Part shown: in pieces, positions 6,001-49,496 of the stretch
Position numbering within the stretch: the stretch's first letter is position 1
Layout of the letters: every line of letters starts with the position of its first letter
Virus record (IMG/VR): IMGVR_UViG_3300013233_000151
Location: 7,962 to 71,961 of that record
Length of the DNA stretch: 64,000 nucleotides
Direction: 5' to 3' (one strand)
Source: a virus
Translations under genes and position numbers: made by a program
The notes under the pieces: generated by a model
Databases searched by the model: none
What the model saw: the letters and a program-made list of their open reading frames with translations, nothing else
What the model was told of the DNA's origin: nothing

Positions 6001-7528
6001 GGACGAAGGCGGCGAGCGTTTCAAGAAGCTGGAGAAGGAGATCGCTGCCAAGGGCGACGTGCGAGATCCCGGCGCGGTCGCGGCGGCGATCGGACGCAAG
6101 AAGTACGGCAAGAAGAAGTTTCAGAAGATGGCCGCTAAGGGCCGCGCGGAATCGACGGACGAGACGGGCACGTTGGAGATGACCGTCTACGCGAAGTCGA
6201 AGCGTGGACCTTGGGTCACGCTGGATCCCTACGGCGAAGAGGTTGAGTACCCGAACAAGCAAGAAGCGGTCGCGGCTGCGCGGGAGAAGGCTTCGGTCGA
6301 GAACTACGGGTTCGTGTACCGCGACGGCAAGGTGGCGAAAGAGGATGTGGGTGAGGCGATCGACGAAGCCGCGAAGAAGCTCAAGGTCGGCAAGGCTCCG
6401 AAGCTCGTGCAGGACACGCTGCGCAGCCTCATGCACAAGGTCACGTACGAGAAGGGCCGCTTCCTGACTGGCGACATCGTGCGCATGGACAAGGCCAAGA
6501 AGGAGGCGGTGATCCAGTGGGCTGTCGGCATGAACGATCCGCAGATGATGGAGCCGGGGACTATCGACGGTCACATCGAGCGACTCGCCAAGCGTCTCGT
6601 CGAGTCGGTCGCGGACAACAAGCGTCCCGTCAGCCTCAACCCTGTCGAGCGCGCACTCCTGAGCGCCATTCGGATCGAGCGAGGAAAGCACGGCATCGAG
6701 GAGTTGATCGCAACCGACCGATTCCTACAGTCAGTCCCGTATGCGGACGTGTTGGTGGCGGCTGATAATCTCTCCACCCTCGGGCTCGTGGGTGGGAACG
6801 GACGTGGGATTATGACCACGTTCGGAGAGGGCGAAGACGGCGTGGACGAAGTGGAGTTTCGTACCCTTCGCTATCCCTACAAGGTCGAGACGGCCGTGGG
6901 GGCGCATGGTCAGCTCAACGGCGTGCGTTTCTACGAGGACGACGCGCAGGCCAAGGCCGACATGCAGAAGCTCGTAAAGCGTGAAGGTCTCGGCAAGGTC
7001 ACGCTCGTCAAGCGCATGACCGCAGCGGAAGCCAAAGCCGCACACGTCCCGTACCCGAACGAGTCCGAGGATCCTGGACCCGGTGTCCAGGATGAGCTGG
7101 TTGAGGCGGTCTTGAAGACCGGCAACCCGAGCGTGCCGAGGATCGGCTACGAGCAGGGGCGCTACTGGTATTCGACCGGCGGTGCTAAGAACGGACCCGC
7201 TGTCCCACCCTCGAAGCGCAAGGACCGTAGCTTCGCGCGCGAGAAGTTTCGCCACATGCTTAGTAACGAAGCTGGCGGCGGAATGGGCCAAGCGGCTGCC
7301 TCGAAGCTGATCGACAAGCTCGATGCGATGATTCCTGAGGACGCGGAGGAGACTGGCCCGCGCGAGCCCCTTCAGTTCCCCGAGTCCGCACTCGAACGCT
7401 ACGTCTTGGCCGCTCAGGCGGCTGGGATTGACGAGGACGACCCTTGTTTTGTCTTCGAGGACGGCATCTTCACGGTGGAGGTGCCCGCTGAAATGGCTCC
7501 GCGTCTGCGTGAGCTGGTCGGGGTGTAG
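17..7528 (+). CDS. Giant modular protein (2503 aa), putative prohead-protease-processed internal head polyprotein; may extend 5' of the window
   Basis: Long ORF with GC-rich codon bias; about 30 acidic linkers (ESLDE, ESTDEA, EDVDEG, EDLDEM, ESVDED) separating unrelated basic modules, including a Zn ribbon and a wHTH; the frame is open back to position 2. Confidence 0.75.
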   Translation: MKKQTTGSGMAGEIATYVMRGNRTPYDLRQHFRLTLPAAQKIMDQSNYAFGPGGKGYAWYMKQVGNVLKGGNVFEATNAQSIAAGALGAMNRGRDASVQFINEGVPETHQRKIAVATLKMSAMGAKIAGGMDHAGAVAVLKDAGWSPAKIAAQLKKAGHDAADIKKWMHESLDEDEKANARKMKAKGYRFIIEFPNNKPAPLYAKTLSMATEIIKDHGAPKGVKGQPIDKFLNEDSEDDELDEALGAKDKKVIAAFTDKKPMDGPKLSTDGETLDFNGMGGRGVASWSNGKIYMGDTGSTQDDAVHRAIRKTAPRNWIGESTDEASPSVLGDKLKAMFDAEYSLNHGKGKDAAASVKKALEAKVKKLASELGKVGGYKYLVSPALNNARKGTSWSKFARNMVTSNLDMGESLDEAVQVTAAYALANMKRGDRVELSTPQSGNQTRKGKAVMRGPHGWAVDLGGKHGTPGVATERNLIKWKAHPVVSEARGAGKGELAGRRIGVGTVKKSASGAKDRASAKRIVEGVLGIQDRAHARQLGIDESVLGRANGLPTALRKYSHALPKGLGKPQKYETRDGVKEGYYLTLTDNKRGLSNRPGSSSGSLTAVFTVENLLSQFKKAEGEHGQHGHTTLTFKKGEGKAPKIVEARLSGGSGGSSKKASRKDDPEAAGSSRFAAQGVGKKAKRESDHGEHHSNYESVEEAKGDPVRLKVISAVRVSSVVPGATAGVTLQDQTVLFRSTDYDGRGGVTGPFVLVDSTDAMFAVLNFGWNVGFEEERGLNKKAHAAMRRNAARAFKQFLKRTNESNDDNTDDLSAKKESGLKAKAKEMGAIKVSGKGPSVNATFKDKATAEKFYRHAKTVGKASMRRSGDTEFTISIDESEDCPEIVDIGDGRYYIEGVGMCESLDEAQGHLLLDEDVLDEMKKSKGHVAFLGDFEYVIVNGGEGMVLGRAPTSNAFDQTGNRHARFEAPAWQAEQAMKLAFSGFRQKVDPKAMQRLKRLLKEDVDEGAETLRVKILDIFDNGEDFHPRYTVNIETNNRDIYTFGMFEPGTEPDSQQGNAVVSNFTNFLKGGARRGEHAMKVSMKRLPASLRGQLETLIADPSPWWGDLEYDEDLDEMGQIYRIGAGGLKPIDTTIFLAPNSSYYLGASTTPHHIVVTAVSDSQITYCQYPYTTSQRIETEIGKDLIAQGTSRYMKTYAAYLDPKQKATWVANLKGKKGPLNGKQPVKGFQRVLVTCVANAKTRDLYGQTKSYGVLTDYWQSGKPGAKGDNASKETSVIKVARNMVPAMKSSGDFDIVTVGRKVVESDEDYCDWIDENGIDEFTSAAIPAIGTMHPWVSPYGSEMSLIGGADDLEDDEDADNEFALDENGNFELVDEAKSSKFSVKCLECGKKFKTASMSPTCPKCKGSDIEPDYDAPRRRKRNEDVEDELDESVKPTVEGFHFILTGALTQYDVQQMARAAKKRGGYHNANALGLYFQALERAEKDPKMRGVKKTSSDHEDLRKLIAVLSDYFDPHFPPIKKTIKQIQAFIDSGKLPKYPTPPKKRKISDSIEIPEVDEAWPVRGTGGAGGGKPNLKAERKGPRGQGTDDFEFADEDLDEGSSLHDALIALFVSNRGRAYTASTIAKLQTVSLAEAMRTLTVLVREGTLRFKRGEGYSLRGNPNALRVAGASEPKAPLSSRLYNQRTNSSPASMREDVDEAVDPLKAFKGRPRDWTAKQNRDAVEMLSGWSLKKLRKHQDLNKRQIVTAHRQGNTEALENLQAMENVYIGAIMRREVGESVDEDSSSSGTLYTGTGRTGPAGPKLPRHLTASDFSKGDAGGNGPVNHEQLRGPAPDAKRSAMVFAEDDEDDVDEGLGRKVFYTADGIGKAKYIVNFHDGKKSHGDGSPFYDIAIFASKAKRATKVKELLKQGYKEVSSAVHETTTSGGVGGFSSEPIGSYPENCGRTGGIRDDSKKKKGPRSVFDNGAIGRVLEQMRESMPGKTDEELMELLDLDEGGERFKKLEKEIAAKGDVRDPGAVAAAIGRKKYGKKKFQKMAAKGRAESTDETGTLEMTVYAKSKRGPWVTLDPYGEEVEYPNKQEAVAAAREKASVENYGFVYRDGKVAKEDVGEAIDEAAKKLKVGKAPKLVQDTLRSLMHKVTYEKGRFLTGDIVRMDKAKKEAVIQWAVGMNDPQMMEPGTIDGHIERLAKRLVESVADNKRPVSLNPVERALLSAIRIERGKHGIEELIATDRFLQSVPYADVLVAADNLSTLGLVGGNGRGIMTTFGEGEDGVDEVEFRTLRYPYKVETAVGAHGQLNGVRFYEDDAQAKADMQKLVKREGLGKVTLVKRMTAAEAKAAHVPYPNESEDPGPGVQDELVEAVLKTGNPSVPRIGYEQGRYWYSTGGAKNGPAVPPSKRKDRSFAREKFRHMLSNEAGGGMGQAAASKLIDKLDAMIPEDAEETGPREPLQFPESALERYVLAAQAAGIDEDDPCFVFEDGIFTVEVPAEMAPRLRELVGV
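7071..7093. repeat. CTGGAC-N5-GTCCAG palindrome copy 1 (ATCCTGGAC CCGGT GTCCAGGAT), inside a polyprotein linker
   Basis: Perfect 9-bp inverted repeat; same core at 17648, 34725, 58338, 63654. Confidence 0.85.
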
Positions 7529-31514: not shown

Positions 31515-34127
31515 ATGGCACAGAGCCCCGGAATCATCACCAACGAACTCACGTTCATCAAGACCAACCCCACACTGGGGGTTACGCTGCCGGTGATCGT
31601 CGGCGGAGCGACGAAAGGCCCGGTGGGCTCTCCGTTGCTTCTTCAAAACGAGACCGACCTGATCCGTGAGTTTGGGCAACCGTTCGCAAGCGACTTCGGT
31701 TTGCTATCGGCGATCGAGTATCTCAAGCAAGGCACGCAGATGTTCTTTCTGCGCGTTGCTGACGGGACTGAATTGGCCGCGACCGTGGAGTCCACAGGAC
31801 CCGAGGGCATCGCGGCTACTGGTTCGATCGCGCTTTCGGGTCAGCCGAACGACGCCGACAACGTGGTGATTTCTGACGGCGTGCTACCGGCGGTGACGTT
31901 CGAGTTCGATGTGGCAACGGCCGCGACGGGCGACATCACGTTCTCGGGCCTGCCGGTCGCCACCGAGACGCTCACGATCGACGACGGCGTGAACCCAGCC
32001 GTCGTCTTCGAGTTCGACACTGCGAACGAAGCGGCCGGTACGCTCGTCCTCGGAGGTCAGCCTTCCGACGCTGATACGTGGCGCATTTCGGACGGCACGA
32101 ACATCGTGGACTTCGAGTTCGACAATAACAGCTCGGTGGTCGAAACCCAGACGCTCCGACAAGTCGTCATTGGCGCGACGCTCTCCGATACGCTCAACAA
32201 CCTGCAAGCGGCCATCAATAACGCGGCTTTCACGTTCAACATCACGGCCGACAACCCGACGCTCGGTACGACCGTTGCGATCACGAACGACAACGTGGGT
32301 GTGGCGGGCAACGTGGCGATCGTCGAGCAGGTCAACGTCTCGACTAACCTTAGCTCGACCGGCATGTTGGGCGGCGACGATCTCACGGCTGGCGGCGGCA
32401 ACATCCCGGTCCGCATCGGTGTGGACGGCCAAGAGACCCGCGACTTTCTGATCGCTGCGATTCAAGGCGTAGCCTCCTTCGCGGTCACGGCCGTCGCTAA
32501 TGGCGCGCTGGTTATTGACCTCACCAACGACGCTGCGGGTACGGCGGGCAACGTGGCGATCACGGGTACGCCCACGAACGTCGCCCACACTGGTATGGCG
32601 GGCGGCACGGACGCGGGCGTCGGCGTCGGTAACGTCGCGGTCGCCGTCGGTTCCACCACGGCGATCACGGTCGAGAACCTGCGCCAAGCCATCAACAACA
32701 ACGCCTTCGCGGTCACGGCTGCTCCCGGAGCGGGCTCGATCGTCTCGCTCTCGAACATCGTCGCCAACGGTGCGGTCGGGAACGTCACGATCACCGGCAC
32801 CGATATCGCGGGCGTGCAGACGCTCGCTGGCATGGGCTCCGGCGTCGCCGCTGGGTCGCTGGTTGGCATGACCGTCACGGCCATCACGCCCGGCACATGG
32901 GGCAACTCGGTCTCGGTCGTGTTCCGGGCGACACAGATCTCGGGCGCGGCTGCGGGCGCGTTCGACATGGACGTGATCGCTCCTGTCGGGACCAGCGGCG
33001 CGTTCCAAGTCGTCGAGACGTTCTTCAACCTCTCGACCACGAGCACAGACGCCAACTTCATCGAGACGCTGGTGAACACGGGCGTCGTCAACCAGTCGAA
33101 CCCGAGCCGCTACGTCAACGTCACGGTTACGATTGACCAGACGCCGGTGGCGGGTACGCTCGCGCTCGGCACCACGCAGGCGGGCACAGACGGGATCAGT
33201 GCGCTCGACGACGCCGACTATATCGGCACCTCGACCGGCACATCTGCGACGGGCCTCCAGTCGCTTCGCAACTCCGAGTCTGTTCAGTTCAATCTGCTGG
33301 CGATCCCGGGCATCACGACCAACGCCGTGATCCTGGAGGGCATCGACGTGTGCGAGACACGACAGGACGCGCTATACGTCGTCGATCCACCGCCGAATCT
33401 CACCGTTCAAGAAGTAGCCGACTGGCACAACGGCTTGTCAGTGCTGCCCAGCGCCCCGGTCGCTCAGCTCGACAGCTCATACGCGGTCATCTACTGGAGC
33501 CACCCTACGACGGCGAGCCAGTACCTCCAACAGAATGTCAAGCTGCCTCCCAGCGCCTTCGTGCTCGCTCAGTACGCGCTCGCGGACCGTCAGGTAGGTC
33601 ACTCGTGGCGGGCAGTCGCGGGCGCGCAGCGCGGCAAGATCGACGCCCTCACGGTTGAGTTTTCGCCTGATCTCACGCAGCGTAACCTGTTGCTCGGTGG
33701 CTCGAACGCCGTGAACCCGATCGTGGAGTTCAGTGGTGGACAGGGCGTACAGATCTTCGGCAACGAGACACTCCAGAGGACGCCCGGCCCCACCGATGCC
33801 GTTCACATTCGTCGCGGTATGCTCGAACTCAAGCGGGCATCCGTTGAGGTCACGCGCGACATTCAGTTCGAGCCCAACGATCCGCAGACGTGGAGGAACG
33901 TCGAGCAGAAGATTCAACCCCTGCTCGACTTTCTCGTAGGTGTGCGTGCGATCGAGCCCGGTGCGACGGTCGTGTCGAACGCCGACACGAACCCGCCTGA
34001 GGCGCAAGCGCAGAAGACCGTCAATGCTCGGATATTCATCAAGCCCATCGGCGCGGCGGAAACGCTCGTTCTCGGCTTCGTGCTTGAGGCTATCGGCGCG
34101 GGATCTCTGTCCATTATCAACGCCTGA
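31515..34127 (+). CDS. Contractile tail sheath protein with triple nested insertion
   Basis: SPGI..E, GGATKGPVG, TPGTWGN, LLAIPG, LPPSAFV, AGAQRG, VNPIV, IFGNETL, IHIRR-type VHIRR, FEPND. Confidence 0.95.
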   Translation: MAQSPGIITNELTFIKTNPTLGVTLPVIVGGATKGPVGSPLLLQNETDLIREFGQPFASDFGLLSAIEYLKQGTQMFFLRVADGTELAATVESTGPEGIAATGSIALSGQPNDADNVVISDGVLPAVTFEFDVATAATGDITFSGLPVATETLTIDDGVNPAVVFEFDTANEAAGTLVLGGQPSDADTWRISDGTNIVDFEFDNNSSVVETQTLRQVVIGATLSDTLNNLQAAINNAAFTFNITADNPTLGTTVAITNDNVGVAGNVAIVEQVNVSTNLSSTGMLGGDDLTAGGGNIPVRIGVDGQETRDFLIAAIQGVASFAVTAVANGALVIDLTNDAAGTAGNVAITGTPTNVAHTGMAGGTDAGVGVGNVAVAVGSTTAITVENLRQAINNNAFAVTAAPGAGSIVSLSNIVANGAVGNVTITGTDIAGVQTLAGMGSGVAAGSLVGMTVTAITPGTWGNSVSVVFRATQISGAAAGAFDMDVIAPVGTSGAFQVVETFFNLSTTSTDANFIETLVNTGVVNQSNPSRYVNVTVTIDQTPVAGTLALGTTQAGTDGISALDDADYIGTSTGTSATGLQSLRNSESVQFNLLAIPGITTNAVILEGIDVCETRQDALYVVDPPPNLTVQEVADWHNGLSVLPSAPVAQLDSSYAVIYWSHPTTASQYLQQNVKLPPSAFVLAQYALADRQVGHSWRAVAGAQRGKIDALTVEFSPDLTQRNLLLGGSNAVNPIVEFSGGQGVQIFGNETLQRTPGPTDAVHIRRGMLELKRASVEVTRDIQFEPNDPQTWRNVEQKIQPLLDFLVGVRAIEPGATVVSNADTNPPEAQAQKTVNARIFIKPIGAAETLVLGFVLEAIGAGSLSIINA

Positions 34128-34792: not shown

Positions 34793-35569
34793 ATGACCGA
34801 ACTAGGCTGGAATAGCTACACGCTTCCGTCCCGTGGGCAGCTCTATCAGGGACGCCTTCCCGACGGAATCGTTCAGATTCGACCCCTGCGAGCGCGCGAA
34901 CAGGCGAAGCTCATGCAGCAAGGCGGGGGCATTGTGGGAAAGGTGGATTCCATCATTTCCACCTGCCTCAAGCTCCCCGAGGGGATCAAGTCGAAGGAAC
35001 TGCTCCTCGTCGATCGCTTCGCGGTGCTGCTTGCGCTCAGGACCAAAACTTTTGGACCAGAGTACACGTTCGACTACCGTTGTCAGGACTGTGGTGAGCA
35101 GCAGAAGGGTCACATCAACATCGTCGAGGACTTCGATGAGCGGACCCCCGACAGTGATCTCGCTGAGCCATTCGATATCGAGCTGCCCGATGAAGGCAAG
35201 GTGGTGAAGATGCGATTTCTCCGAGGGGAGGACGAGGATCAGATCGCCAAGAACTCCAAGCGGGTCAAGATGCAGTCGAACGACTCCGCTGATCCGAGCT
35301 ATCTGATCCGCCTTGCGATGCAGATCATGGCGATCGACGGCGAGGACCCGGAGAAGATGCGGTCGCTTGTGGATCGACAGAAATTCATCGAGGGGATTTC
35401 GGCGGGCGACCTATGCGTATTGGAGGACGCGATGAACGACCTGGAGCCGGGTATCGACACGAGGATTTACCCCGAGTGCAGCAAGTGTGCCTATGTCAAC
35501 GAAATGACGATGCCGTTTTCGGCAGAGTTTTTTCGTCCGAGACGGAGGAGTCGATCTCGAAACACTTGA
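34793..35569 (+). CDS. Baseplate hub/tail assembly chaperone, T4 gp26-like
   Basis: LPSRGQLY, LLLVDRFAVLLALR, CQDC, ELP, RFLRGEDE, CSKC, EFFRP. Confidence 0.85.
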   Translation: MTELGWNSYTLPSRGQLYQGRLPDGIVQIRPLRAREQAKLMQQGGGIVGKVDSIISTCLKLPEGIKSKELLLVDRFAVLLALRTKTFGPEYTFDYRCQDCGEQQKGHINIVEDFDERTPDSDLAEPFDIELPDEGKVVKMRFLRGEDEDQIAKNSKRVKMQSNDSADPSYLIRLAMQIMAIDGEDPEKMRSLVDRQKFIEGISAGDLCVLEDAMNDLEPGIDTRIYPECSKCAYVNEMTMPFSAEFFRPRRRSRSRNT

Positions 35570-35786
35570 GGCGAACGTCTTCTTCCTTGTGTACGGCAGC
35601 CACGGTGGATTCACCAAGGCCGACATTGATGCGATGGATCAAGCAGAGGTGTTCCGCTACACCCAACGTCTTGCGGAGCAGCGCAAGAAGGAGAATGAGG
35701 CGCGTGACGAGGCCAACCGCAAAGCCGCGAAGGGCGCTAAGAAGAATCAGACTCCGCTGTGGAAACGGCTCACCGGCCACCGCTGA
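35529..35786 (+). CDS. C-terminal chaperone frame (gp51-like), probably reached by a +1/-2 frameshift at TTTTTTC
   Basis: Frame open from 35508; DLETLEANVFFLVYGSHGGFTKADIDAM..QRLAEQRKKENE; first in-frame start is only GTG 35589. Confidence 0.6.
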   Translation, partial: FFVRDGGVDLETLEANVFFLVYGSHGGFTKADIDAMDQAEVFRYTQRLAEQRKKENEARDEANRKAAKGAKKNQTPLWKRLTGHR

Positions 35787-35793
35787 GAGCTGC

Positions 35794-35823
35794 GTAGACG
35801 AATCCTTCGGAGGTCTCTAAACT
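35794..35823 (+). promoter_or_regulatory. Putative promoter G-TAGACG N17 TAAACT
   Basis: Recurring motif, intergenic. Confidence 0.65.
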
Positions 35824-39018: not shown

Positions 39019-42000
39019 ATGGGGGACTTCACTCTATCTGGTTTTCCGATCGGCAACGCGGGTGAGTTTTCACTCGAAGCTGAACAGCAACTCACTGGAG
39101 CGTTCACGCTTCAACTAACCATCGGAGATGGTGTGGGGAGCGAATTGCTGGTCGCACAGGCGACGGCCAATATGTCGGGTCTGGTTACAACGACCATCAT
39201 CGGCGTCATTACCGGAACGTCGAATCTCGTCGTGCAGGGTGGTGTGATTCTTGCGGCCTCGATCCCTGCGGGATTCTTTCCGTACGCGCAGGCGGAGTTG
39301 GTGAGCGGTCAGGCGATCTTCGATGGCAACTTATCGAACAATGATGGCACGAACGACTTCGGAGAGTGGCATCCTTTCCCCATCTACGCGGCCGGGGAGG
39401 TGACGGGCGGCTTCGTCGTGGATGCTCGGATCGGTTCGAGCGCGCTCGCGCGGGAGCTGATCGCGCAGGCGTCCGCCAACATGACGGGCAGCCCGCAGGT
39501 CGATCAGTTCATCGGCATCGCGGACGTGTCGGGCAACGAGTTGCTCAGCGCCGCCGCGACGGCGAACATGACGGGGCAGCCCGACTTGCTCAAGGACGGC
39601 GGCTCGCCTCCGTTCGTGATTCTCAACGGCACGGACCAGTACCTCAGCCACCCGGTTGTCACGGACAGTGACTTGCGCGGGGGCGCGAACTTCTCGTGCG
39701 TGATCGTTTTCGACCCCGAGGTCGTGGAGCAGGGCGGGACGGGAGTGCTGTGCGGCAAGCACGACCCGAACGCTACTACGGCGGATTGGGGCTGGAGGGC
39801 CTTGTGGGACGCGACCACGGGCGAAATCACGGTGACGGTCTCCAGCTCCTCCACGGGTGCGGACCGTGCTGAGCGCACGACGGCCGTAGGGGGCACGGGG
39901 ATCCGCGTCAGGACCGTCTTCGCGTTCACCTGGGACAGTACGACCTTGAGTCTGTACGTCGCAGGCAGCGCCTCTCAGGGCGTCCAGACGAACTTCGGCA
40001 TCGTGGGTGTGATGGTGGCGAGCACGGCTCGGTTCGCCGTGGGGGCGGACGATACGCTCTCGACGCCCGCCAACTTCTTCCAGGGCGCGATCCACGCCAT
40101 CTACATCTTCGATGACGTGCTCAGTGGGGCGGAGGTCGGGACGATCGACCAGTCGGGCTACATCCCTTCGGCGCTCGATGACGCGAACTTTGTGGTGGCG
40201 TGGCGACCCGACCGCATCGAGGGATCGACCGTTGGCTTTCAGGTTACGAAGTGGCTCGATGAGAAGGCGAACCGACAGCTAGATCGTAGTGACGGAACGA
40301 TCGTTTGCTTCCCGGGCTTCCTCGATCACCTTCGGTTCCTCTCCGACGAGTGGGACATGGATTTCCTCAATGCGCAGATTGCGGGCGTCAGCCTCGGCCA
40401 GAACCTCGCGTCGGACTTTGTTCTATCGGCCAGCACCACCAACTTTGTTGAGTCGGGTGGATTCCGTCTATTTGTTCCGGTCACGGGCACGGCAGAGCCG
40501 GAGATCGTCTCAGGATTCCGCACGAACGCCAACGACATCACGGTCTTTTGGGGAGGTCGAAAGGACGATGCGTCTGCAAACGATGTCGTTTACTTTGAGC
40601 TGCTCGCGCAGGGGCTCCAGGTTTTTTTTGATGCAGCGACGCTCGACCTCTTCGTCTATCAAGACACGGGTACGACGACGCGCTACGAGTTCGGGCAGTC
40701 GGTCCCCGGTATGGAAACGACTGTGCCGGATGGACCGGGAACCGTTTTTGCGATTCGATACAACAGTCAGACGGCGCTGTTCACGCTCTTTATCAACGGC
40801 GTCAAGATGTTCGAGGAGGGCACGACCGTTACCGGGCCGAACCTCGTGGGATCGGGGATGCGCTTCTGCGAGTTTGGGAATTGGGCGGCCATCAACGCTT
40901 CGGCCAGTCAGACGGATCGCCGAGCGGCCTTCGTGCTGCCCTCTTGCTTGCCTGATATCCTGATGGAACGAGTGCTCGCAGGTGTGATATCGCCGGTCTT
41001 CGGTATGGACAATGCGTCTCCGATCGGACGAACGCTGCGCGCCGCATTGCGACGTAATCCGGTCCCTTCGCTTCCGTTCGGATTGAACTTCTTTGAGTAC
41101 GATGCGATTGACGCTGCCGACGATGATCCTCCGAATCCGCAGCCCGATAGGTTGCGTCCGTATCCGACGGGATCCGGTACGGTCGAGATTTTGGGGCAGC
41201 CCCTCGATGGTGAACAGTTCACGCTCTCAGATGGCACAACTACCCTTACGTTTGAGATTGAGATCGCGGGAGGGATCACAGGTGACGTGTCGGTGTTCTT
41301 GGGAGCCAATGTGCTCGGTACACTCGTCAACATCGCTACTGCTATCAACATTTCGGCCCTTCGTCTGACGGCGGGAGCCCCCGTGGTGTTTCAACCTGAC
41401 GGAGCAAACGATCGAGGGTACGTACGGATTACTCAAGACGACTTACACGATGGCGACTTGCCGCTGGCAGTTGTCAATACCTCACACTTGATTGTGGGAG
41501 GACAGGTTCGCGTCACAGGACCGTACCGCGTCGATGGTCCTAGCGGATCGGTGGGCTTGGTGGACGGTCAACCGAATGACGGAGATCAGTTTGTCATATC
41601 GGACGGCATCAATACGGTAACCTTCGAGTTTGATACTGCGGGTGGTGTGGCGGTCGGTTCAACGGCTGTTCCGATTGGGGCGACCATGACGTTGACGATG
41701 GATAATCTGGTCACGGCCATCAACGCTTCGGTGCTGCTTTTGACAGCAGACCCGACGCAGGCATTCAACCGCTTTGAGATTACGGCTATCGACGCCGTAC
41801 AGAGTATTCTGACGGCACGCCGGTCGAGTAATCCGACCGACTACGCGAATCGGGTCGATCGGCCCATCATTATTCCCGTCAACGCCTCTGGAAATTTGGT
41901 GGCCTCTACGAACTTTGCGCAGCCTGCTCCGTTTGAGGAGTCGATCGCATCCGGTCTTGGAGGGCTTGTTTACGGGACCGTCAATACGGATACGACGCTG

Positions 42001-42900
42001 ACGTTTGTGGACAATCCGTATTCGGTCTTAGAGCCCGAAGCGCTAACGGTAGGTGTTGGGACTTTGCCTCCGTTCATCAACCCTACTCCGAGCATCTCGT
42101 CCGTCACAGCCGACTTGGCAAAAAACGTGACGGCCGTTGCTCTGGCTGGACCGACGGACGCAGGCGATGTGAGATCTTGGTGGGAGATTGAGCTGGTGTC
42201 GGACGATCCACAGTTCAACCTGCGCATCGACGAGCAAGACAACAACTTTTCGATCAACAAAATCCAGTCGGATACGTTTTCGATTCCGCTAGGTCAGGAT
42301 TGGGATGATCTTCGGATTCGTTTTGTCATCCAATCGCAGCTCGATCCGAATCAGCTTTGGTTCTCGCTGTACGTGCGCATGACAGGAGAGAACTTCAATA
42401 ACGGAACCGTAGAGACCATTATCCTTCCAGGCGTGGGCGCTCCAGAGCCTCCCCCGACGATTGAGCTGGAGATCTCTACAACTCAACAAGCCTTCGTGGT
42501 GCAGGAAGCTTCGGCCGCTGCTGCGCGTCAGCTTGCTCTCTCAAACCGTTCTCGTTACAAGCTTACGCGACTCTTCGTCAATGCTAAGACGGACCCACGT
42601 ATCGTGGGCCGCAACGAAGATGGGTTGGAGTTCGGTCTCCTTTCCGTTCTTGACGACTTCCTTGCTTTGGGAACCGATGTGAGAACCTACAAGGTCAGGT
42701 CGGGTGATATCGGGTTCTTGGATCAGATCTCTGTGAAGTTCTACGGAGCAGGCTTCGAGGACTTCTGGTGGGTGATCGCTTACGCGAATGGGATTGCGGA
42801 TCCCGATGCCGATATGTTCGTGGGTCAGAACCTCGTGATCCCTCCGCGCGAAACCGTTACCGCGTTCTTGTCTCGTAAGCCCACGGGGGATGGTCGTTAG
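39019..42900 (+). CDS. Large baseplate protein: N-terminal repeats, LamG/ConA-like domain(s), two sheath-type modules, C-terminal LysM/gp53-like domain
   Basis: LNGTDQYL..FTWDSTTLSLYV..FAVG..FQGAIHAIYIFDDVLS (LamG); YKVRSGD..LDQISVKFYG..FWWVIAYANGI.DP..GQNLVIP (LysM-like). Confidence 0.75.
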   Translation: MGDFTLSGFPIGNAGEFSLEAEQQLTGAFTLQLTIGDGVGSELLVAQATANMSGLVTTTIIGVITGTSNLVVQGGVILAASIPAGFFPYAQAELVSGQAIFDGNLSNNDGTNDFGEWHPFPIYAAGEVTGGFVVDARIGSSALARELIAQASANMTGSPQVDQFIGIADVSGNELLSAAATANMTGQPDLLKDGGSPPFVILNGTDQYLSHPVVTDSDLRGGANFSCVIVFDPEVVEQGGTGVLCGKHDPNATTADWGWRALWDATTGEITVTVSSSSTGADRAERTTAVGGTGIRVRTVFAFTWDSTTLSLYVAGSASQGVQTNFGIVGVMVASTARFAVGADDTLSTPANFFQGAIHAIYIFDDVLSGAEVGTIDQSGYIPSALDDANFVVAWRPDRIEGSTVGFQVTKWLDEKANRQLDRSDGTIVCFPGFLDHLRFLSDEWDMDFLNAQIAGVSLGQNLASDFVLSASTTNFVESGGFRLFVPVTGTAEPEIVSGFRTNANDITVFWGGRKDDASANDVVYFELLAQGLQVFFDAATLDLFVYQDTGTTTRYEFGQSVPGMETTVPDGPGTVFAIRYNSQTALFTLFINGVKMFEEGTTVTGPNLVGSGMRFCEFGNWAAINASASQTDRRAAFVLPSCLPDILMERVLAGVISPVFGMDNASPIGRTLRAALRRNPVPSLPFGLNFFEYDAIDAADDDPPNPQPDRLRPYPTGSGTVEILGQPLDGEQFTLSDGTTTLTFEIEIAGGITGDVSVFLGANVLGTLVNIATAINISALRLTAGAPVVFQPDGANDRGYVRITQDDLHDGDLPLAVVNTSHLIVGGQVRVTGPYRVDGPSGSVGLVDGQPNDGDQFVISDGINTVTFEFDTAGGVAVGSTAVPIGATMTLTMDNLVTAINASVLLLTADPTQAFNRFEITAIDAVQSILTARRSSNPTDYANRVDRPIIIPVNASGNLVASTNFAQPAPFEESIASGLGGLVYGTVNTDTTLTFVDNPYSVLEPEALTVGVGTLPPFINPTPSISSVTADLAKNVTAVALAGPTDAGDVRSWWEIELVSDDPQFNLRIDEQDNNFSINKIQSDTFSIPLGQDWDDLRIRFVIQSQLDPNQLWFSLYVRMTGENFNNGTVETIILPGVGAPEPPPTIELEISTTQQAFVVQEASAAAARQLALSNRSRYKLTRLFVNAKTDPRIVGRNEDGLEFGLLSVLDDFLALGTDVRTYKVRSGDIGFLDQISVKFYGAGFEDFWWVIAYANGIADPDADMFVGQNLVIPPRETVTAFLSRKPTGDGR

Positions 42901-42945
42901 ATGGCACTCAGCGACAACGCCAATCGGTTAGGCTACTCGGTATGA
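42901..42945 (+). pseudogene. Orphaned original start of the tape measure gene (MALSDNA...), duplicated at 43642
   Basis: ATGGCACTCAGCGACAACGCC vs GTGGCTCTTAGCGACAATGCC encode the same 7 residues. Confidence 0.7.
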
Positions 42946-43652
42946 CAGCCATCAAGCCGGGCTCGACCGTGACGATCTATGCCATCCGCTGTAAGCGTAA
43001 TGGCTATCGGTACGTTGGCGCGACGGGTACTTCGGTTCGCCGACGTTGGAGTAACCACAAGTCCAAGCTACGAGGTCGGCAGAACCACGGGACGGTGAAG
43101 TTGCAAGAGGCGTGGGATCGTTTTGGCGAAGGCTCTTTTGTCGTCGAGGTTCTGGAAGAGGGTGTGTCGTATTCGGATGCTGCTGAGCGCGAGGCATTTT
43201 GGATCGGTCAGTTTAGGCGGATCTTCAACACCGGCGATCCTCTTGACCTCGGGACCCATGCGGAGAAGGACTACATCGTGACTCCTCCGGGCGGGCCTGA
43301 GCGCGCGGTGCGTAACCTACGGCGATATTGTCAGGAGAACCGTCTGGGTTCGGCCAATATGGTGCTGGTTGCGCAGGGCGTTGCAGTCCATCATCGAGGG
43401 TGGCTGTGCAGATACGCGGGGGATGCTGCGCCGAAGGTGAAGAGGGAGCGATACACGGGGGGCTATTGGGTTGATTGGGTCGGCGGAGGGCGCGAGTTCG
43501 TCTCTTCGTTGAAGGGTTGGTGTCGGACGCAAGGATTTGATCCCGATACGATACGCCGCTTGGTGGATGATCTTCCGGTTCGGAAGGACTTTGAGTTTAC
43601 GATCGAGGTTGCGCGTCCGCGCTTGAGAAAGGAGGTGCAACGTGGCTCTTAG
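42942..43652 (+). mobile_element. Free-standing GIY-YIG homing endonuclease gene
   Basis: TIYAI..YRYVGAT..RRRWSNH..LQEAWDRFG..F.VEVLE..E..WI; C-terminal DNA-binding-like repeats. Confidence 0.85.
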
Positions 43653-46424
43653 CGACAATGCCGTGGGTTTTATTTAGAAGCGGAGGATGTGAGCCTATCG
43701 AAGACGCTCAAGACCGCCGCTGGGAACTACGAGAAGTACACGAAGTCTCTGGAGGATTACAACCAGCGCGCCTTCAAGAGCGCGCAGCATGGGATGGGCA
43801 GCGTCAAACAGCTCATCAAGTCGGTGAAGGATCTTCCGGGTGCGGTTGAGCAGTCGATGAAGAAGGCGAGTGGCACGATCCAAAAAGGTCTCCGCCCGAT
43901 CATGCAGAAGGTGGACCTTTCGATCTCGGTCGGCAGCGCGTCGAAGCTCAAGAAGCTGTTCGGTCAGGCGGTCGCTAACGCGATGGCGGGCGCGAACGTG
44001 CGCATGACGGCTTCGCTTCCCCAGCGTCGCATGGCGATGTTCCAACGAGGTGTGGGTCTGCGCGCACAGTACCACGACGTGGTGCAGCCGCCCGATATGC
44101 AGGGCAAGATCCGGCCGCTCAAGAAGTTCGCCAAGGGTGGCGTCGTCGATGGACCGGCGGGCATCGACAAGATTCTTGGTCTACTCACCAAGGATGAGAT
44201 GGTCCTGCCCGCTGACGTGTCGAAGGATCTGCAAAAGGCTGCGGGAGGCAAGTTGAAAACAGCGGGCGGTAAATTCGCCTCTGCGAAGGAGTTGGGCAAG
44301 ATGGTCGCGGAGGTTACAAACCTCGCGGACGCACTCAAGAAGATGAAGGGCGGGTTGGAGGCAGGCGTCGGGACTGAGAAGGATCAGAAGGCGTACGTGC
44401 AGGGCGTTGAGGAGCTAGAGCGTAAGGTTGGTACTTTGAGCGAGGCTCAGAACGATCTGAGCTTCACGACTAAGGTTAGGCTCGGCCCGTCGATCCTCCA
44501 GGCAACGAATCGTCTGGAGGATTTCAAGGATGCAGGTGAGGACACCGGCGGTGTGATGGAGAATCTGCTGGGGAAGATCATTGGACCGGCGCGCTTCCTC
44601 GCCATCACGAAGGGGATCGAGACGTTGCAAGACGGGGTGAATTCCTTACGTGCGGGAGCAGGTAGCGCGTTCAGTACGCTTGGTGGTGAGGAGATTGCTA
44701 GTGGGATCGACTCGATCAACCAGATGAATCAATTTCTTGGTATCAGCAGAGATGAGTTGGCTAAGGTCAAACTTCGCGCTGGTGCCGTAGCTAATGAGAT
44801 TGAAGGTGTCACGTTCGACGAGCTATCGAACGGTCTTCGCGTTGCGGCAGAGTTGGGAATTCGAGATACAGACGTGATGTTCGATCTCGCTACGGCGGCT
44901 TCGGCTGTTGCTAAAGGGACGGATATTGCACAAGAGTCTGCGGTGACGTTAGGCTTCGAGTTGACAAAATCGTTGAACGTGAGTCAGAAGGGTTTTGAGG
45001 CGACACTTGGTTCAATGGCGCAGCTTTCGGATAGTACCTCTGGATTCAACATTTCAGCCGGGAAACTGTTTGAGCAGACGACGGCCGACGTGGATGTGTT
45101 GAACACTTCACTGCGTAACATGAGCGGTGAGGAGTCACAGAAGCTTATAGGATCGTTCAACCAAATTGGTGCAGTGCTGGAGAGCACGTTCATTAGTAAC
45201 GCAGGAGAGATTCGACAGGTACTCGCTAAAGCCTTTGAGGGCGGGGCGGCTAATCAGGAGGCAATCGCCACCGCTATCAACCTGACAGGTCTTGCGCAGG
45301 AAGACCTGCGTAAGAAGTTGAAGTCGGGAGACTTGGAAGGACTATTCGATCGTATCGGTAAGCAAGTGCAAGGTATGCGTCCGGACGAGATCAACGCGCT
45401 TTCGTCTGCGATTGGAATTAGCGCGAACGAACTAGGCAAGTTCGGTAGTGAAATGGATTCGGTGAACGCAGGGTTTGAGACATCGAAGACGCGCATAGTA
45501 GCGGAAGGTGCTGGAATGAACGTGCTGAAAACTCGTGCGTTGAATGTTCGCACAGAATTTGAGCAAGTGCAGGAAAAAGTTACCGACGGTAGTGCGGCGT
45601 TCACTGCGTATGGGATTTCGGGTGTGCAAGTCCTTGACTTCTTCAAGGAGTTCAACCTTACGTCGCTTGCAAGCATTGCCGTCTTGGGAAAAATGACGCT
45701 CAGCGCATTAGGAACTGCGAAGGGGTTTCTGAGTGTTGGCGGAGCGGTATCTGGGTCCGGAGAGGCGCTGGCGGCCACCGGAGGTATCGCGTCGAAGCTT
45801 GGGCCGATGCTTGGAAAACTTGCGTTGTCGGTCGGTCCTATTTTGCTCGTGGGCGCTGCTGTTGCGGGACTGACGAAGTTGGCGATCGACTCGATTGAAA
45901 AGACCAACGCGATCAATAAAGAGACTGCGGAGAAGGGAGCGAAGATCGGCCTCACGGAGTTCGGGGCCGTGGGTTTCGACATCCAGAAAAAGAAGAAGAG
46001 TATTGCTAATGTTCAGAAGCAGATCGACTTAGATAAGGATGTCGGTCAGGAAGTCAACCCGTCCTCTTTGAAGTTGCTTGAACGCTACAACAAACAACTT
46101 GCAGAACTCGAAGCGAGGTCGCAAGCGCTGGCGGACGCGGGGAAGGCGAGTAAGACAGGGGGCGTCGAGAATCTGTCTCAGAACTTAGGTACGCCCCCGG
46201 TGTCGCAGGCTGAGATCGCAGCATTGAGCACTAACGTCCAGGTATCCACAGGGGCCACGGAGGAGAAGCTCGATCGCAACAACGAACTCATGGAACAGGT
46301 AGTGAGTCTTATGCGCGAGCAAGTTCAGCAGGGTCGTTCAGGCCCCGCCCCGACACAAACTCAACAGGGGGTTTCGACTGGTATCTCAAGTTTCGGAAGG
46401 GACGTTGCGGGAGGTGGTTTGTAA
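43642..46424 (+). CDS. Tape measure protein (start GTG 43642 needs a -1 shift at GGGTTTT; continuous ORF from 43689)
   Basis: Ala/Gly/Lys-rich helical protein, FAKGGVV..DEMVLP motif, hydrophobic segments; AAGGAGG RBS before 43642. Confidence 0.85.
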
Positions 46425-47014: not shown

Positions 47015-48243
47015 GCACTAATAGCAATGTCTTCACAACAGGCTCGATCAACTTGCTATCGGCAGGTCAGATAGTTGCGCTTCCGTTTCGAGAGTTCTTG
47101 CAGGAGATGGAAGTAGACATCACCTCACGAGGATCCTGGACGGCTTCTATCAAGCTCTTCGATAATCAGGGCGACCGCTTGGAGAAGATACTGATCGCAG
47201 CAGGTAAGGACCGTGACATCGACTTTCAATGGGGGTGGGACGATCCCGTCGTTAGCTTTCAGCGGAAGTTTTTAGGTTCGGTCACACAGTACGTGCCGGA
47301 GTTCATGCCGCACGGCGTACTGTTGAATCTGGAGGTGGTGGGCCGGTCCGCCTTCCAGCAGGTCATCGACCGCAAGATTCGTTCCTTCGAGGAGGGGATG
47401 ACAATCTCGGATATCGTTCGCGCGATTGCAGGAGATCGAGGATGGACATCCGTGATCGAGGATTCGGAGGGTACGTCTGAGCAGCCGTTTAGCTCGAAGG
47501 GTGAGAGCGACCTTAGTTTCATCATCAACACGTTGTTGCCGCACGCCGTCAACGCGAACGGATCAGATTTCAAGGCGCGATTTGACGAGAACGACGTGTT
47601 CCATTTTCATTCTCCCGGCTTTCAAGGATCAACGCCGCTGAATCAGCACACGTACCGATTCACCAGTGACGTTTCTGGCGATGTGATCTCCTTCGTACCG
47701 CAGGACAGTCAGCTCTTCGGCACCCTATACGGAGGAGGCAACAGCCTCTACAGCTCGCCTAATTCGGCGATGGGGGGTCAAGAAGAGCAGAAGACCGATC
47801 AGGGTACGGGCCTATCGGGAATCGGTACCCCGGCAGCAGTAGACGCTTCGTCTCAGATTGACATGGGGGATGGGGTGCATTCCTACAACAACATCACAGC
47901 TCGGGACTCGGCTGAGGTGGAGAGGCTTACGAAGGCGCGTTTTGCCGATATGCGTCGATATGCTTTCAATGCGCATTTGCGGGTGCACGGGACGCATCGT
48001 GCGCGCGCGTTCGACTACATCAACGTGGACTACACGAAGACCGACGGGACCACGCACTATCTGTCCGGCAATTTTCAGGCGTTTAGAATCAAGCATGTCG
48101 TTGGCGTGGGGATCGGATGGACGACAGAGTTTGAGCTGTATCGTCAAGGAATCGAACAGCTTCCTGGGACCCGTCCCATTACGGTTTCGCAGGCGATTAC
48201 GCCGAGTGGATCCGACAACGACGGCCTTACGATCAGCACATGA
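47011..48243 (+). CDS. Baseplate hub protein (T4 gp27/P2 gpD-like)
   Basis: FQWGW, ISDIVRAIA, ESDLSFI, YLSGNFQAFRIKH..WTTEFEL. Confidence 0.75.
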   Translation: MSTNSNVFTTGSINLLSAGQIVALPFREFLQEMEVDITSRGSWTASIKLFDNQGDRLEKILIAAGKDRDIDFQWGWDDPVVSFQRKFLGSVTQYVPEFMPHGVLLNLEVVGRSAFQQVIDRKIRSFEEGMTISDIVRAIAGDRGWTSVIEDSEGTSEQPFSSKGESDLSFIINTLLPHAVNANGSDFKARFDENDVFHFHSPGFQGSTPLNQHTYRFTSDVSGDVISFVPQDSQLFGTLYGGGNSLYSSPNSAMGGQEEQKTDQGTGLSGIGTPAAVDASSQIDMGDGVHSYNNITARDSAEVERLTKARFADMRRYAFNAHLRVHGTHRARAFDYINVDYTKTDGTTHYLSGNFQAFRIKHVVGVGIGWTTEFELYRQGIEQLPGTRPITVSQAITPSGSDNDGLTIST

Positions 48244-49496
48244 AACGAGACCTTCGCCCAGGACAACCTGTTGAGCTGTTCCCCGGTATTTATCGGGGAG
48301 TTGTGGAGGACGTGAATGATCCAGAACTGCGCAAGCGGTATCGCGTCCGCGTCGTGAATGTGCACCCCGCTGCCGTCGAAACTCAGCACCTTCCGTGGTC
48401 TGAGCTGGGTGGTGGCTTTGGAGGTCAGACGTTCGGCGATGTTCCGGCCTACGCACTCGACGATGAGGTGTGGGTAATGTTCGAGGCTGGCAACCGACGC
48501 TTCCCTGTCATAATGGGCGGCATAATGAACTTCGCTGGGGGTCTTACTCCGATCCCTCCTGAGCAGACGGGAGACGATTATCCGGAGACACAACAGCGAT
48601 GGATCCGCGTCGATCGCGCGGGTAACAAGATTGAGATGAGCCCGCTCGATGAGGAGTTATGGGTGAAGATCCTCACGCCCGACGGCTCGTTCGTGCAAGT
48701 GTCGGCTGCCGACGGCTCCGTACAGATCTCTGGCGAAGGCCGTGTGCAGATTACGGCTCCGAATTTGCAGATCGTTGCAGATGAGGAGATGAATGTCACT
48801 ACGGCGAAGCTGGTCGCCGACGTGGCGTCTGAGTGTACGATTCGAGGCGGAGGCGTGGTGAATATCAAGGGCGCGGACGTTATCAACGTCGGCGAATACA
48901 CACCGCCTGACACGAGTGGCGGCTTGATTCCCTCTGTGCCTGAGACCTCGGGAGTCGTCAACATCAAGGCCGTCGATCTCGTGAAGATCGAGAGCGCCGA
49001 CGTGATTGACGTGGATGCGGGCGGCGCGATGACCGTGGATGTCGTGGACAAGATTACGGTTACGGGCGGCGCTGATCTTGATCTGACGGTTGCGGGTAAC
49101 GTGCTGCTCGATGTGGAAGGCAACGTCGATGCAGACATTGAAGGGACGCTCACCGCTAACGCCGCTAAGAAAATTCTGATCGACGGTCAGGCAGACATCG
49201 AAGTCAATGCGCAGTCTAACTTCACGCTCACGAATGCTGGAGCGACCTTCGACATCAACGCACAGACGCAATTCAACTTGCACGCGGGGGCGACGATGGC
49301 GATCGACGCCGACGCTAACCTCACGATTGACGCCACCGCGAACCTCGATATCACTTGTACGGCGTCGATGTCTCTCAAGGCGAACGCACAGCTCACGCTT
49401 GATGCTTCGATCATCAGCATTTCAGCAACGTCGTTGCTGGATATTTCGGCGGGGTCGCTCGCACAGATCGACGGTTCTATAATCCTTATTGGGTGA
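48240..49496 (+). CDS. Baseplate spike (gp5/gpV/VgrG-like OB fold + beta-helix)
   Basis: GIYRGVVEDVNDP..RVRV..LPW..VWVMFEAGN..PV; ~8-residue beta repeats in the C-terminal half. Confidence 0.9.
   Translation: MKRDLRPGQPVELFPGIYRGVVEDVNDPELRKRYRVRVVNVHPAAVETQHLPWSELGGGFGGQTFGDVPAYALDDEVWVMFEAGNRRFPVIMGGIMNFAGGLTPIPPEQTGDDYPETQQRWIRVDRAGNKIEMSPLDEELWVKILTPDGSFVQVSAADGSVQISGEGRVQITAPNLQIVADEEMNVTTAKLVADVASECTIRGGGVVNIKGADVINVGEYTPPDTSGGLIPSVPETSGVVNIKAVDLVKIESADVIDVDAGGAMTVDVVDKITVTGGADLDLTVAGNVLLDVEGNVDADIEGTLTANAAKKILIDGQADIEVNAQSNFTLTNAGATFDINAQTQFNLHAGATMAIDADANLTIDATANLDITCTASMSLKANAQLTLDASIISISATSLLDISAGSLAQIDGSIILIG

Follow-up and report, generated by a model that had tools for sequence, protein, structure and literature searches.

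The stretch of DNA analyzed here, referred to as the window, comprises 64,000 nucleotides (nt) and corresponds to bases 7962-71961 of the 71,961-nt linear IMG/VR virus record IMGVR_UViG_3300013233_000151, which is estimated to be 54% complete. In its tail module, between a gene for a 1293-amino-acid (aa) protein and a gene for a protein of about 920 aa that precedes the hub and spike genes, lies an open reading frame (ORF) for a GIY-YIG homing endonuclease. The beginning of the ~920-aa protein is encoded twice, by an upstream copy 1 and a downstream copy 2 that flank the endonuclease ORF. The features of the locus are as follows.

39019..42900, + strand: tail/baseplate gene of 1293 aa with a Laminin_G_3 domain (Pfam PF13385, E 5e-7) and a LysM-like C-terminal end
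42901..42945, + strand: 14-codon leader ORF left over from the native start, recognized as such by the identity of copy 1 to the related locus L008
42942..43652, + strand: free-standing GIY-YIG homing endonuclease of 236 aa (Pfam PF01541, E 2.3e-13, residues 11-93)
43629..43635, + strand: Shine-Dalgarno sequence AAGGAGG, within C-terminal codons of the endonuclease gene (R-K-E-V) and 6 nt ahead of GTG 43642
43642..43677, + strand: replacement start, consisting of GTG and reworded codons 2-10 (MALSDNAVGF), then ATT TAG
43665..43671, + strand: frame break G_GGT_TTT, either a -1 slippery heptamer of the X_XXY_YYZ type or a T run one base short
43671..46424, + strand: main part (body) of the tape-measure-like gene, shifted to the -1 frame with respect to the replacement start; codon 11 (TAT) is at 43671

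The gene for the ~920-aa protein is located between the LysM-like baseplate gene and the hub/spike genes, downstream of the sheath and tube genes, and its ORF as called mechanically begins at GTG 43689. In the protein Atlas, the tape-measure clusters PF10145/PF20155 are nearest, with a score of 0.95, and 28 of 30 hits are to PF10145 clusters. The protein matched no Pfam or PHROG family, and its family profile had no meaningful hit in the PDB. Additionally, tblastn against 50,697 cultured-phage records found no relative, and a single-protein scan of IMG/VR returned nothing. Because its place, its size and the Atlas result fit a tape measure protein while the family searches gave none, the gene is described as tape-measure-like.

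The displaced native start and the endonuclease gene

The TAG of the 1293-aa gene (42898-42900) directly abuts the native tape-measure ATG at 42901, where copy 1 begins. Copy 1 reads ATG GCA CTC AGC GAC AAC GCC, encoding MALSDNA, and then continues as AAT CGG TTA GGC TAC TCG GTA TGA. Its first 21 nt are identical to L008 at all 21 positions and to a second related locus, L003, at 19 of 21. The complete match to L008, whereas copy 2 differs at four positions, indicates that copy 1 is the native copy. After codon 7, copy 1 has an extra A (42922/42923), followed by ATCGGTT up to 42929, which corresponds to codons 8-10 of the relatives. Past this point the homology is gone, and the sequence up to the TGA at 42943-42945 is unrelated. 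By this alignment, copy 1 is a truncated native start that has kept native codons 1-10, and its end at about 42929 is the left edge of an insertion.

The leader formed by this remnant ends in a TGA (42943-42945) that overlaps the ATG of the endonuclease gene (42942-42944) as ATGA. The endonuclease gene has no Shine-Dalgarno sequence of its own, and the RNA fold around its start is not significant (z -1.27). A first-pass annotation of this DNA had described both the run of MALSDNA from 42901 to a TGA overlapping the GIY-YIG ATG and the use of the host gene's translation start by the element. Both points agree with this arrangement, in which the endonuclease gene sits behind the native initiation site and is joined to a 14-codon leader by the ATGA overlap.

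In addition to its Pfam domain, the 236-aa ORF matches PHROGs 314/7168 (homing endonuclease) and aligns with the I-TevI catalytic domain (1mk0/1ln0, E 4e-7). The catalytic motifs are kept, with iY, rYvG, rRW..H and rEaFWI standing opposite IY, YVG, KRW..H and ERxNFWI of I-TevI. Specifically, the Tyr of GIY, the Tyr of YIG, the Arg, the His and the Glu are all in place. Residues 105-158 match the C-terminal part of I-HmuI (1u3e, E 2.7e-4) and PHROG 2081, and they form a separate C-terminal DNA-binding module. The gene looks intact and its product is a predicted nuclease, the only GIY-YIG protein encoded across the 71,961-nt record. The wider family, GIY-YIG proteins with repeated DNA-binding modules, has 11,203 representatives at E up to 0.001. 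Close kin are rare, being limited to two among 5.8 billion proteins, P0017 (72% identity) and P0018 (52%), and scans of IMG/VR and of GTDB genomes with the endonuclease alignment found nothing.

Two further features of the reading frames were considered. An apparent continuation of copy 1 into the endonuclease N-terminus, where ATGACAGCCATCAAG resembles the region around GTG 43689, was dismissed as a chance match because P0017 and P0018 share that N-terminus. The endonuclease ORF and the tape-measure body lie in one frame over 42942-46424, parted only by the TAG at 43650-43652, and read-through of this codon would fuse the two. Read-through or an altered genetic code as a source of such a fusion was rejected because TAG is an ordinary stop, ending eight of the 25 long ORFs of the window, the 1293-aa gene among them.

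The replacement start and the endonuclease-free relatives

Copy 2, at 43642, reads GTG GCT CTT AGC GAC AAT GCC and is offset from copy 1 by 741 nt, a distance with which a repeat search agrees. Between the two 21-mers there are four differences in 21 nt, all of them silent, and seven of seven codons specify the same residue. No other place in the 64-kb window, on either strand, comes within four mismatches. The endonuclease TAG falls within codons 3-4 of copy 2, and the silent C-to-T change in Leu3 of copy 2 is what makes this stop. The first-pass annotation had pointed to AAGGAGG followed by a recoded MALSDNA with changes at 4 of 21 nt, and this description is accurate for 43629-43635 and GTG 43642.

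A protein search yielded 14 relatives of the tape-measure-like protein with 41-71% identity. An N-terminus of the form M.(L/F)S..AIGF[FY]LE is present in 14/14, and exactly half begin with MALSDNA (7/14), the start that the earlier annotation had expected of relatives. Residues I8, G9, F10, L12 and E13 are invariant across 13 aligned relatives. The family is also strongly mosaic, with identity to single relatives (P0002-P0013, over 43689-46424) ranging from 17% to 90% per 100-residue bin; the bins of P0013 against the window protein are 84, 90 and 67%, then 40, 17 and 33%. This mosaic identity points to recombination within the gene.

The DNA of 10 related loci, six from IMG/VR and four from metagenome contigs, was then compared. 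An endonuclease homolog was found in none of the 10 by tblastn (best E 0.22). A homolog of the LysM-like gene, judged on its C-terminal 100 aa, ends about 60 nt or less before the start in six of them (L002, L003, L008, L009, L010 and L011). In L008 the TAG of this homolog is directly followed by ATG, and in L003 the homolog ends one base before ATG. The gene order is different in the remaining four loci. In the more distant L004, L005 and L006 the LysM-like gene lies downstream of the tape-measure-like gene, and the invaded junction is not family-wide. Over the ~13 kb shared, L003 and L008 have the same order of neighboring ORFs as the window and nearly equal lengths (in aa, 608/1266/919/196/413/416 in L003 vs. 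610/1293/-/196/412/418 in the window). Because order and lengths match these two loci, the sole difference is the 741 nt of extra DNA at 42901-43641. Moreover, because relatives without the endonuclease have a single contiguous start, the endonuclease gene is an insertion, as the first-pass annotation had proposed for the 5' end of the tape-measure gene.

The DNA of copy 2 departs from its relatives in an unusual place. Among five endonuclease-free relatives (10 pairs), codons 1-12 diverge by 8-33% and codons 13-60 by 31-50%; the Fisher p for conservation of codons 1-12 is <0.05 for eight pairs, with values of 0.056 and 0.26 for the remaining two. Copy 2 diverges from the same five relatives by 33-42% over codons 1-12. 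Its 21-mer differs from L003 at 6/21 nt and from L008 at 4/21, and 12 of the 36 bases of its codons 1-12 depart from L008, with one conservative residue change, I8V, at a column invariant in 13 relatives. On these comparisons, the rewording of copy 2 runs counter to the family pattern and is placed where the DNA of the relatives is most conserved. Specifically, the 18-nt stretch GACAACGCCATCGG(C/G)TTC (codons 5-10) is common to four of the five endonuclease-free relatives, and copy 2 alters five of its 18 bases, including the sole residue change I8V. Copy 2 also contains rare codons (TTA 2%, CTA 5%, CTT 13%, AAT 24%, GGT 24% and TTT 25%, with TAT within 23-25%); the GC content at third codon positions (GC3) of the genome is 0.74.

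A second phage probably carries a similar arrangement. The 72%-identical endonuclease P0017 comes from a single 68,415-nt Logan contig, and the tape-measure relative P0012 (46% identity), which starts MALSDNAIGFF, comes from a contig likewise of 68,415 nt that is taken to be the same one. P0017 shares with the window endonuclease the C-terminal ...FTIEVARPRLRKEV, the stretch that encodes AAGGAGG, followed by a TIWR end; the peptide PRLRKEV, which spans the Shine-Dalgarno codons, is conserved in P0017, which ends ...PRLRKEVTIWR. Read one frame over, ATA TGG CG(C/T) TGA is ATG GCG (C/T)TG A.., that is, M-A-L-S. The C-terminus of P0017 would fit a ATGGCGCTGAGC start that overlaps the endonuclease stop, with the stop in codons 3-4 and the start 7 nt after the Shine-Dalgarno sequence. 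The endonuclease gene presumably lies next to the tape-measure-like gene in this phage, and it is absent from 10/10 of the related loci. The endonucleases are 72% alike, vs. 46% overall and 53% in the first 100 residues for the flanking gene, a difference that would fit transfer between diverged phages. P0012 is not especially close to the window in those first 100 residues, where no shared co-conversion tract is visible.

The second start could instead have arisen by a local tandem duplication that later diverged, rather than being imported with the endonuclease. A duplication would account for the failure to find a natural tape-measure start resembling the DNA of copy 2, including in an exact 18-nt search of IMG/VR with the reworded start, which gave three matches, all in an unrelated gene. 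It would not explain why all four differences in 21 nt are silent though copy 1 is no longer selected as a tape-measure start, a pattern that fits two alleles diverging while both were functional. Neither would it explain why the codon usage of copy 2 is foreign to the genome, nor why a 72%-identical endonuclease with what appears to be the same overlap of Shine-Dalgarno sequence and start sits beside a tape-measure protein that is only 46% identical. A duplication is accordingly considered improbable.

It is also conceivable that the endonuclease gene resides in a self-splicing group I intron, with the gene pieces joined in RNA. Tape-measure genes are often interrupted by intron-borne endonucleases, and splicing of the ICP1 tape-measure gene has been shown by RNA sequencing and reverse transcription PCR (PMC10448857). 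In the window, no Rfam family, a group I or group II intron included, matched 42500-44200 at E up to 1. The remnant ends (42929) just 12 nt short of the ORF, which in turn overlaps the replacement start, and this leaves hardly any space for a ribozyme core. Splicing would also be unnecessary because the second start is complete and has its own Shine-Dalgarno sequence. Additionally, the extra A takes copy 1 out of register with the family sequence past codon 7, and the gene of the second phage is called as an intact ORF from MALSDNA. An intron is therefore very unlikely, and the first-pass view that the arrangement works without splicing is consistent with the lack of an intron signal in the Rfam scan.

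The one-base frame break

Beyond its first seven codons, copy 2 continues as GTG GGT TTT ATT TAG and stops at 43675-43677 after 11 codons in all. The residues YLEAEDVSLSK are encoded in the -1 frame from the TAT at 43671. This frame, that of the body, is open only from 43653, being closed upstream by the endonuclease TAG, and it contains no ATG, GTG or TTG before GTG 43689. Frame 1 encodes the family N-terminus as far as Phe10, and frame 0 takes over at Tyr11. The contig has four T at 43668-43671, and five T would yield a contiguous sequence of the MALSDNA..GFYLEAED type. Because the replacement start is 1 nt out of register, a full-length protein needs either a -1 slip or a correction of the contig. 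The contiguous MALSDNA..GFYLEAED implied by the first-pass annotation is not what the contig encodes; of its claim that the element regenerates the gene with a recoded start, the reworded start with its own Shine-Dalgarno sequence stands, and the simple regeneration does not. The frame break is not conserved, all 14 related proteins being contiguous, including the endonuclease-linked P0012.

One explanation is that the break comes from an indel introduced in sequencing or assembly, or belongs to a minority variant that is not viable, and that the live phage has five T and a gene contiguous from GTG 43642. One-base errors and mutations in homopolymers are the commonest kind. The addition of one T gives a perfect family N-terminus with nothing else changed, the record is a single, incomplete metagenome contig, and P0012, which is linked to a homologous endonuclease, is contiguous. 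In contrast, the window gives no other sign of an indel, since its long ORFs tile and their lengths equal those of the relatives over ~13 kb. It also holds 36 runs of at least five A or T, and a lone random error at a slippery heptamer would be a coincidence. An artefact of this kind is a serious possibility, if somewhat short of an even one.

Alternatively, the break may be real, with ribosomes that start at GTG 43642 slipping by -1 at G_GGT_TTT into YLEAED... to produce a protein of ~927 aa. Non-slipping ribosomes would release an 11-residue peptide, and the 1-nt deletion could be a form of self-protection. Such "savior indels", with low-level compensatory frameshifting, have been described (PMC5009743), and in the T4 mobA cassette a translational bypass guards against self-nicking (bioRxiv 10.1101/2022.08.31.505936). 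The break coincides precisely with a canonical X_XXY_YYZ heptamer that is correctly registered, sitting in the zero frame at the point where the coding switches frame. The first G of this heptamer comes from GTG (Val8), and it is present only because Ile8, a residue invariant in 13 relatives, became Val. The family N-terminal residues are otherwise undamaged in both frames. No other frame break is visible among the 25 long ORFs that tile the window, one of which has 2503 aa, and the agreement in ORF lengths with L003 and L008 over ~13 kb likewise favors a real break.

A hairpin of -17.8 kcal/mol begins 7 nt downstream of the heptamer; at z -1.9 it is no better than in five endonuclease-free relatives, which fold comparably (z -0.4 to -2.7), and the wider fold at 43660-43780 is not significant (z 0.40). 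G_GGU_UUU is among the shiftiest heptamers for mammalian ribosomes, whereas in Escherichia coli A_AAA_AAG is far shiftier than U-rich sites (PMC5009743). Moreover, the break has been seen in one contig only, P0012 is contiguous and has Ile8, and a slip at codon 10 offers no evident benefit. A real slip, whether programmed or compensatory, is therefore possible but rather unlikely.

A third explanation is that the protein is made without its first 16 residues, by initiation or reinitiation at GTG 43689, or that the gene is dead. No start codon of the body frame comes before GTG 43689, and GGAGG precedes it at 43682-43686. The 11-codon ORF stops just 11 nt ahead of this GTG, close enough for reinitiation to be possible. 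The spacing between GGAGG and GTG, however, is 2 nt, and a Shine-Dalgarno sequence this close to the start is too near for normal initiation. In addition, residues 1-16 contain five invariant and several nearly invariant columns of the family, and codons 11-16 upstream of this GTG are perfectly preserved. A truncated or dead gene is hence a poor prospect.

If the slip is taken together with the other features, the cassette may be a three-part mobile unit composed of the endonuclease, a portable ribosome site with a reworded start, and a one-base "savior" deletion in its own target. The deletion would be mended by the -1 slip at a heptamer that the otherwise unexplained Ile8-to-Val change enables. 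This joint reading is offered tentatively and is unlikely as a whole. If it holds, T4 mobA/gene 60 would be joined by a second, independent example of a homing endonuclease traveling with a protective recoding signal, and this example would be the first to rely on simple frameshifting and the first to lie at a structural gene's 5' end.

Proposed mobility of the cassette and its genomic setting

Based on the comparisons above, the locus probably contains a 741-nt free-standing GIY-YIG cassette that was inserted at about codon 10 of the tape-measure-like gene and brought with it a spare, reworded start. The 3' end of the cassette provides a strong ribosome-binding site and a GTG start, and it repeats codons 1-12 of the interrupted gene in reworded form. 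The native remnant would keep its initiation site, coupled to the upstream gene through TAGATG, and would now drive the 14-codon leader. Translation would pass from the leader to the endonuclease by termination and reinitiation at ATGA, so that the enzyme would be made at a low level, because the leader stop overlaps its ATG, and within the late tail operon. The tape-measure protein would be translated from the new start without splicing.

In a mixed infection, the enzyme would cut endonuclease-free relatives in or near GACAACGCCATCGG(C/G)TTC, and repair off an endonuclease-bearing genome would copy in the cassette together with the spare start. The carrier itself may be immune. Specifically, its own genome is proposed to escape cutting because the target is broken in copy 1, by the extra A and the truncation, and is reworded in copy 2 at 5/18 positions; the reworded start would thus be resistant to cleavage. 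The divergence of the two copies may also hinder loss of the cassette by recombination between repeats. The left junction appears to be illegitimate, as in a one-ended repair in which the right end was copied from the donor and the left was joined without homology, and this would account for the truncated remnant and the extra A.

Several points weigh against this reading. The target site is placed solely by conservation and by the breakpoint of copy 1. As it stands in the contig, the cassette does not simply restore the gene, because the body lies in a different frame from the replacement start. When copy 2 is compared with L008 alone, the excess of changes in codons 1-12 over codons 13-60 (12/36 vs. 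30/144) is not significant (p 0.13). The phage of P0017 and P0012 is known from proteins alone, and the overlap and any remnant there are deduced from them. Lastly, the tape-measure function of the interrupted gene is putative, being drawn from synteny, length and the Atlas lead. The finding itself is real, and there is good support for describing the element as a gene-start replacement cassette.

The closest known systems in logic are the mobile ORFs (mORFs) of fungal mitochondria, found in atp6 of Allomyces macrogynus (as cited within PMC3630166) and in atp6, atp9, cox2 and nad3 of Glomus sp. In these, a LAGLIDADG or GIY-YIG ORF has inserted close to one end of an essential gene and carries its own diverged version of that end, which is the one expressed. 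The native end is left as a duplicate nearly identical to that of insertion-free relatives, and the two versions encode similar protein from dissimilar DNA (PMC3630166). The window element is similar in that its endonuclease ORF is flanked by a native copy (42901) and an inserted copy (43642), the native one matching L008 at 21/21 and the inserted one diverged in DNA and, apart from I8V, not in protein. Unlike the mORFs, which replace 3' (C-terminal) ends in organelles, it replaces the 5' end of a phage gene. Because the 5' end is replaced, the cassette must supply a ribosome-binding site and a start codon, and the native remnant, in a further difference, becomes a leader ORF feeding the endonuclease. 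The window element can thus be described as the 5'-end mirror image of an mORF, with two additions: a portable ribosome site with a start, and a use for the orphaned native start. An N-terminal duplication via intron mobility is also mentioned for Tremella fuciformis mitochondria (PMC8393795).

Among phages, MobA of T4 is an HNH-type nickase. Like the window element, the T4 mobA/gene 60 arrangement consists of a homing endonuclease gene within an essential gene, a diverged flanking copy and new ends for the split gene, and the 50-nt translational bypass that follows it closely shields the carrier against the nuclease that it encodes (bioRxiv 10.1101/2022.08.31.505936). There, the host topoisomerase gene is split into two proteins, whereas in the window nothing is split off beyond the 14-residue leader, and the recoding is a 50-nt hop as opposed to a 1-nt slip that is a candidate only. 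The T4 Seg/Mob genes and mobE of Aeh1 (the nrdA "genes-in-pieces") are likewise intronless, overlap their neighbors and depend on translational coupling. They lack an initiation region of their own, and the nrdA stop and mobE start form UAAUGA (PMC2988022). Unlike the window element, they occupy the space between neighboring genes or leave their host gene divided into two functional polypeptides, and none of those described in PMC2988022 duplicates and rewords the start of a downstream gene. The intron-borne endonucleases of ICP1 and others share the host gene and the selfish logic with the window element and differ in being spliced, no intron having been detected in the window. In the open-access papers searched, no duplication of a phage 5' gene start carried by a free-standing endonuclease was found, and one may still be in print elsewhere.

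The usual view is that homing endonucleases persist in essential genes only through an intron or intein, or else by dividing the host gene into two working halves. The window element would represent a third way in a phage, in which a spare, reworded start with its ribosome site is provided and the displaced native start is reused for translation of the endonuclease. It would also offer a concrete route by which endonucleases shift pieces of structural genes between distant phages, building mosaic tail genes. The conserved 18-nt stretch and its reworded copy would form a compact pair of target and immunity. If the frame break is real, it would provide a rare link between selfish nucleases and translational recoding.

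From its Pfam and PHROGs matches, the host of this element is an uncultured, distant T4-like myovirus. The + strand carries all long ORFs, which are closely tiled across the window. Other features that mark it are as follows.

31515-34127, + strand: sheath (Pfam/PHROGs)
48240-49496, + strand: gp5/V-type spike (Pfam/PHROGs)
Elsewhere in the window: gp23-like capsid and S77 prohead protease (Pfam/PHROGs)
Elsewhere in the window: gp19-like tube, T4_baseplate and gp25-like proteins (Pfam/PHROGs)

Around the insertion, blastn of 42000-45500 against cultured phages gave no match, and a scan of 42300-44300 gave 0 promoter-like and 2 terminator-like sites, with no excess over shuffles. Residues 1234-1284 of the 1293-aa upstream protein match PHROG 7145 (baseplate wedge). 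A T4_baseplate-family ORF (PF12322) at 34793-35569 shares 157 nt with a 135-aa ORF that lies in another frame (35413-35820), and the overlap within 34793-35820 could reflect an over-long called start or a frameshifted pair. The 2503-aa ORF, at 17-7528, matches no Pfam family at E up to 0.001. Lastly, the window contains two N6/N4 DNA methylase genes, at 11927-13177 and 15921-17165, the first with a ParB_N domain, and a MazG-like gene at 17596-18315.

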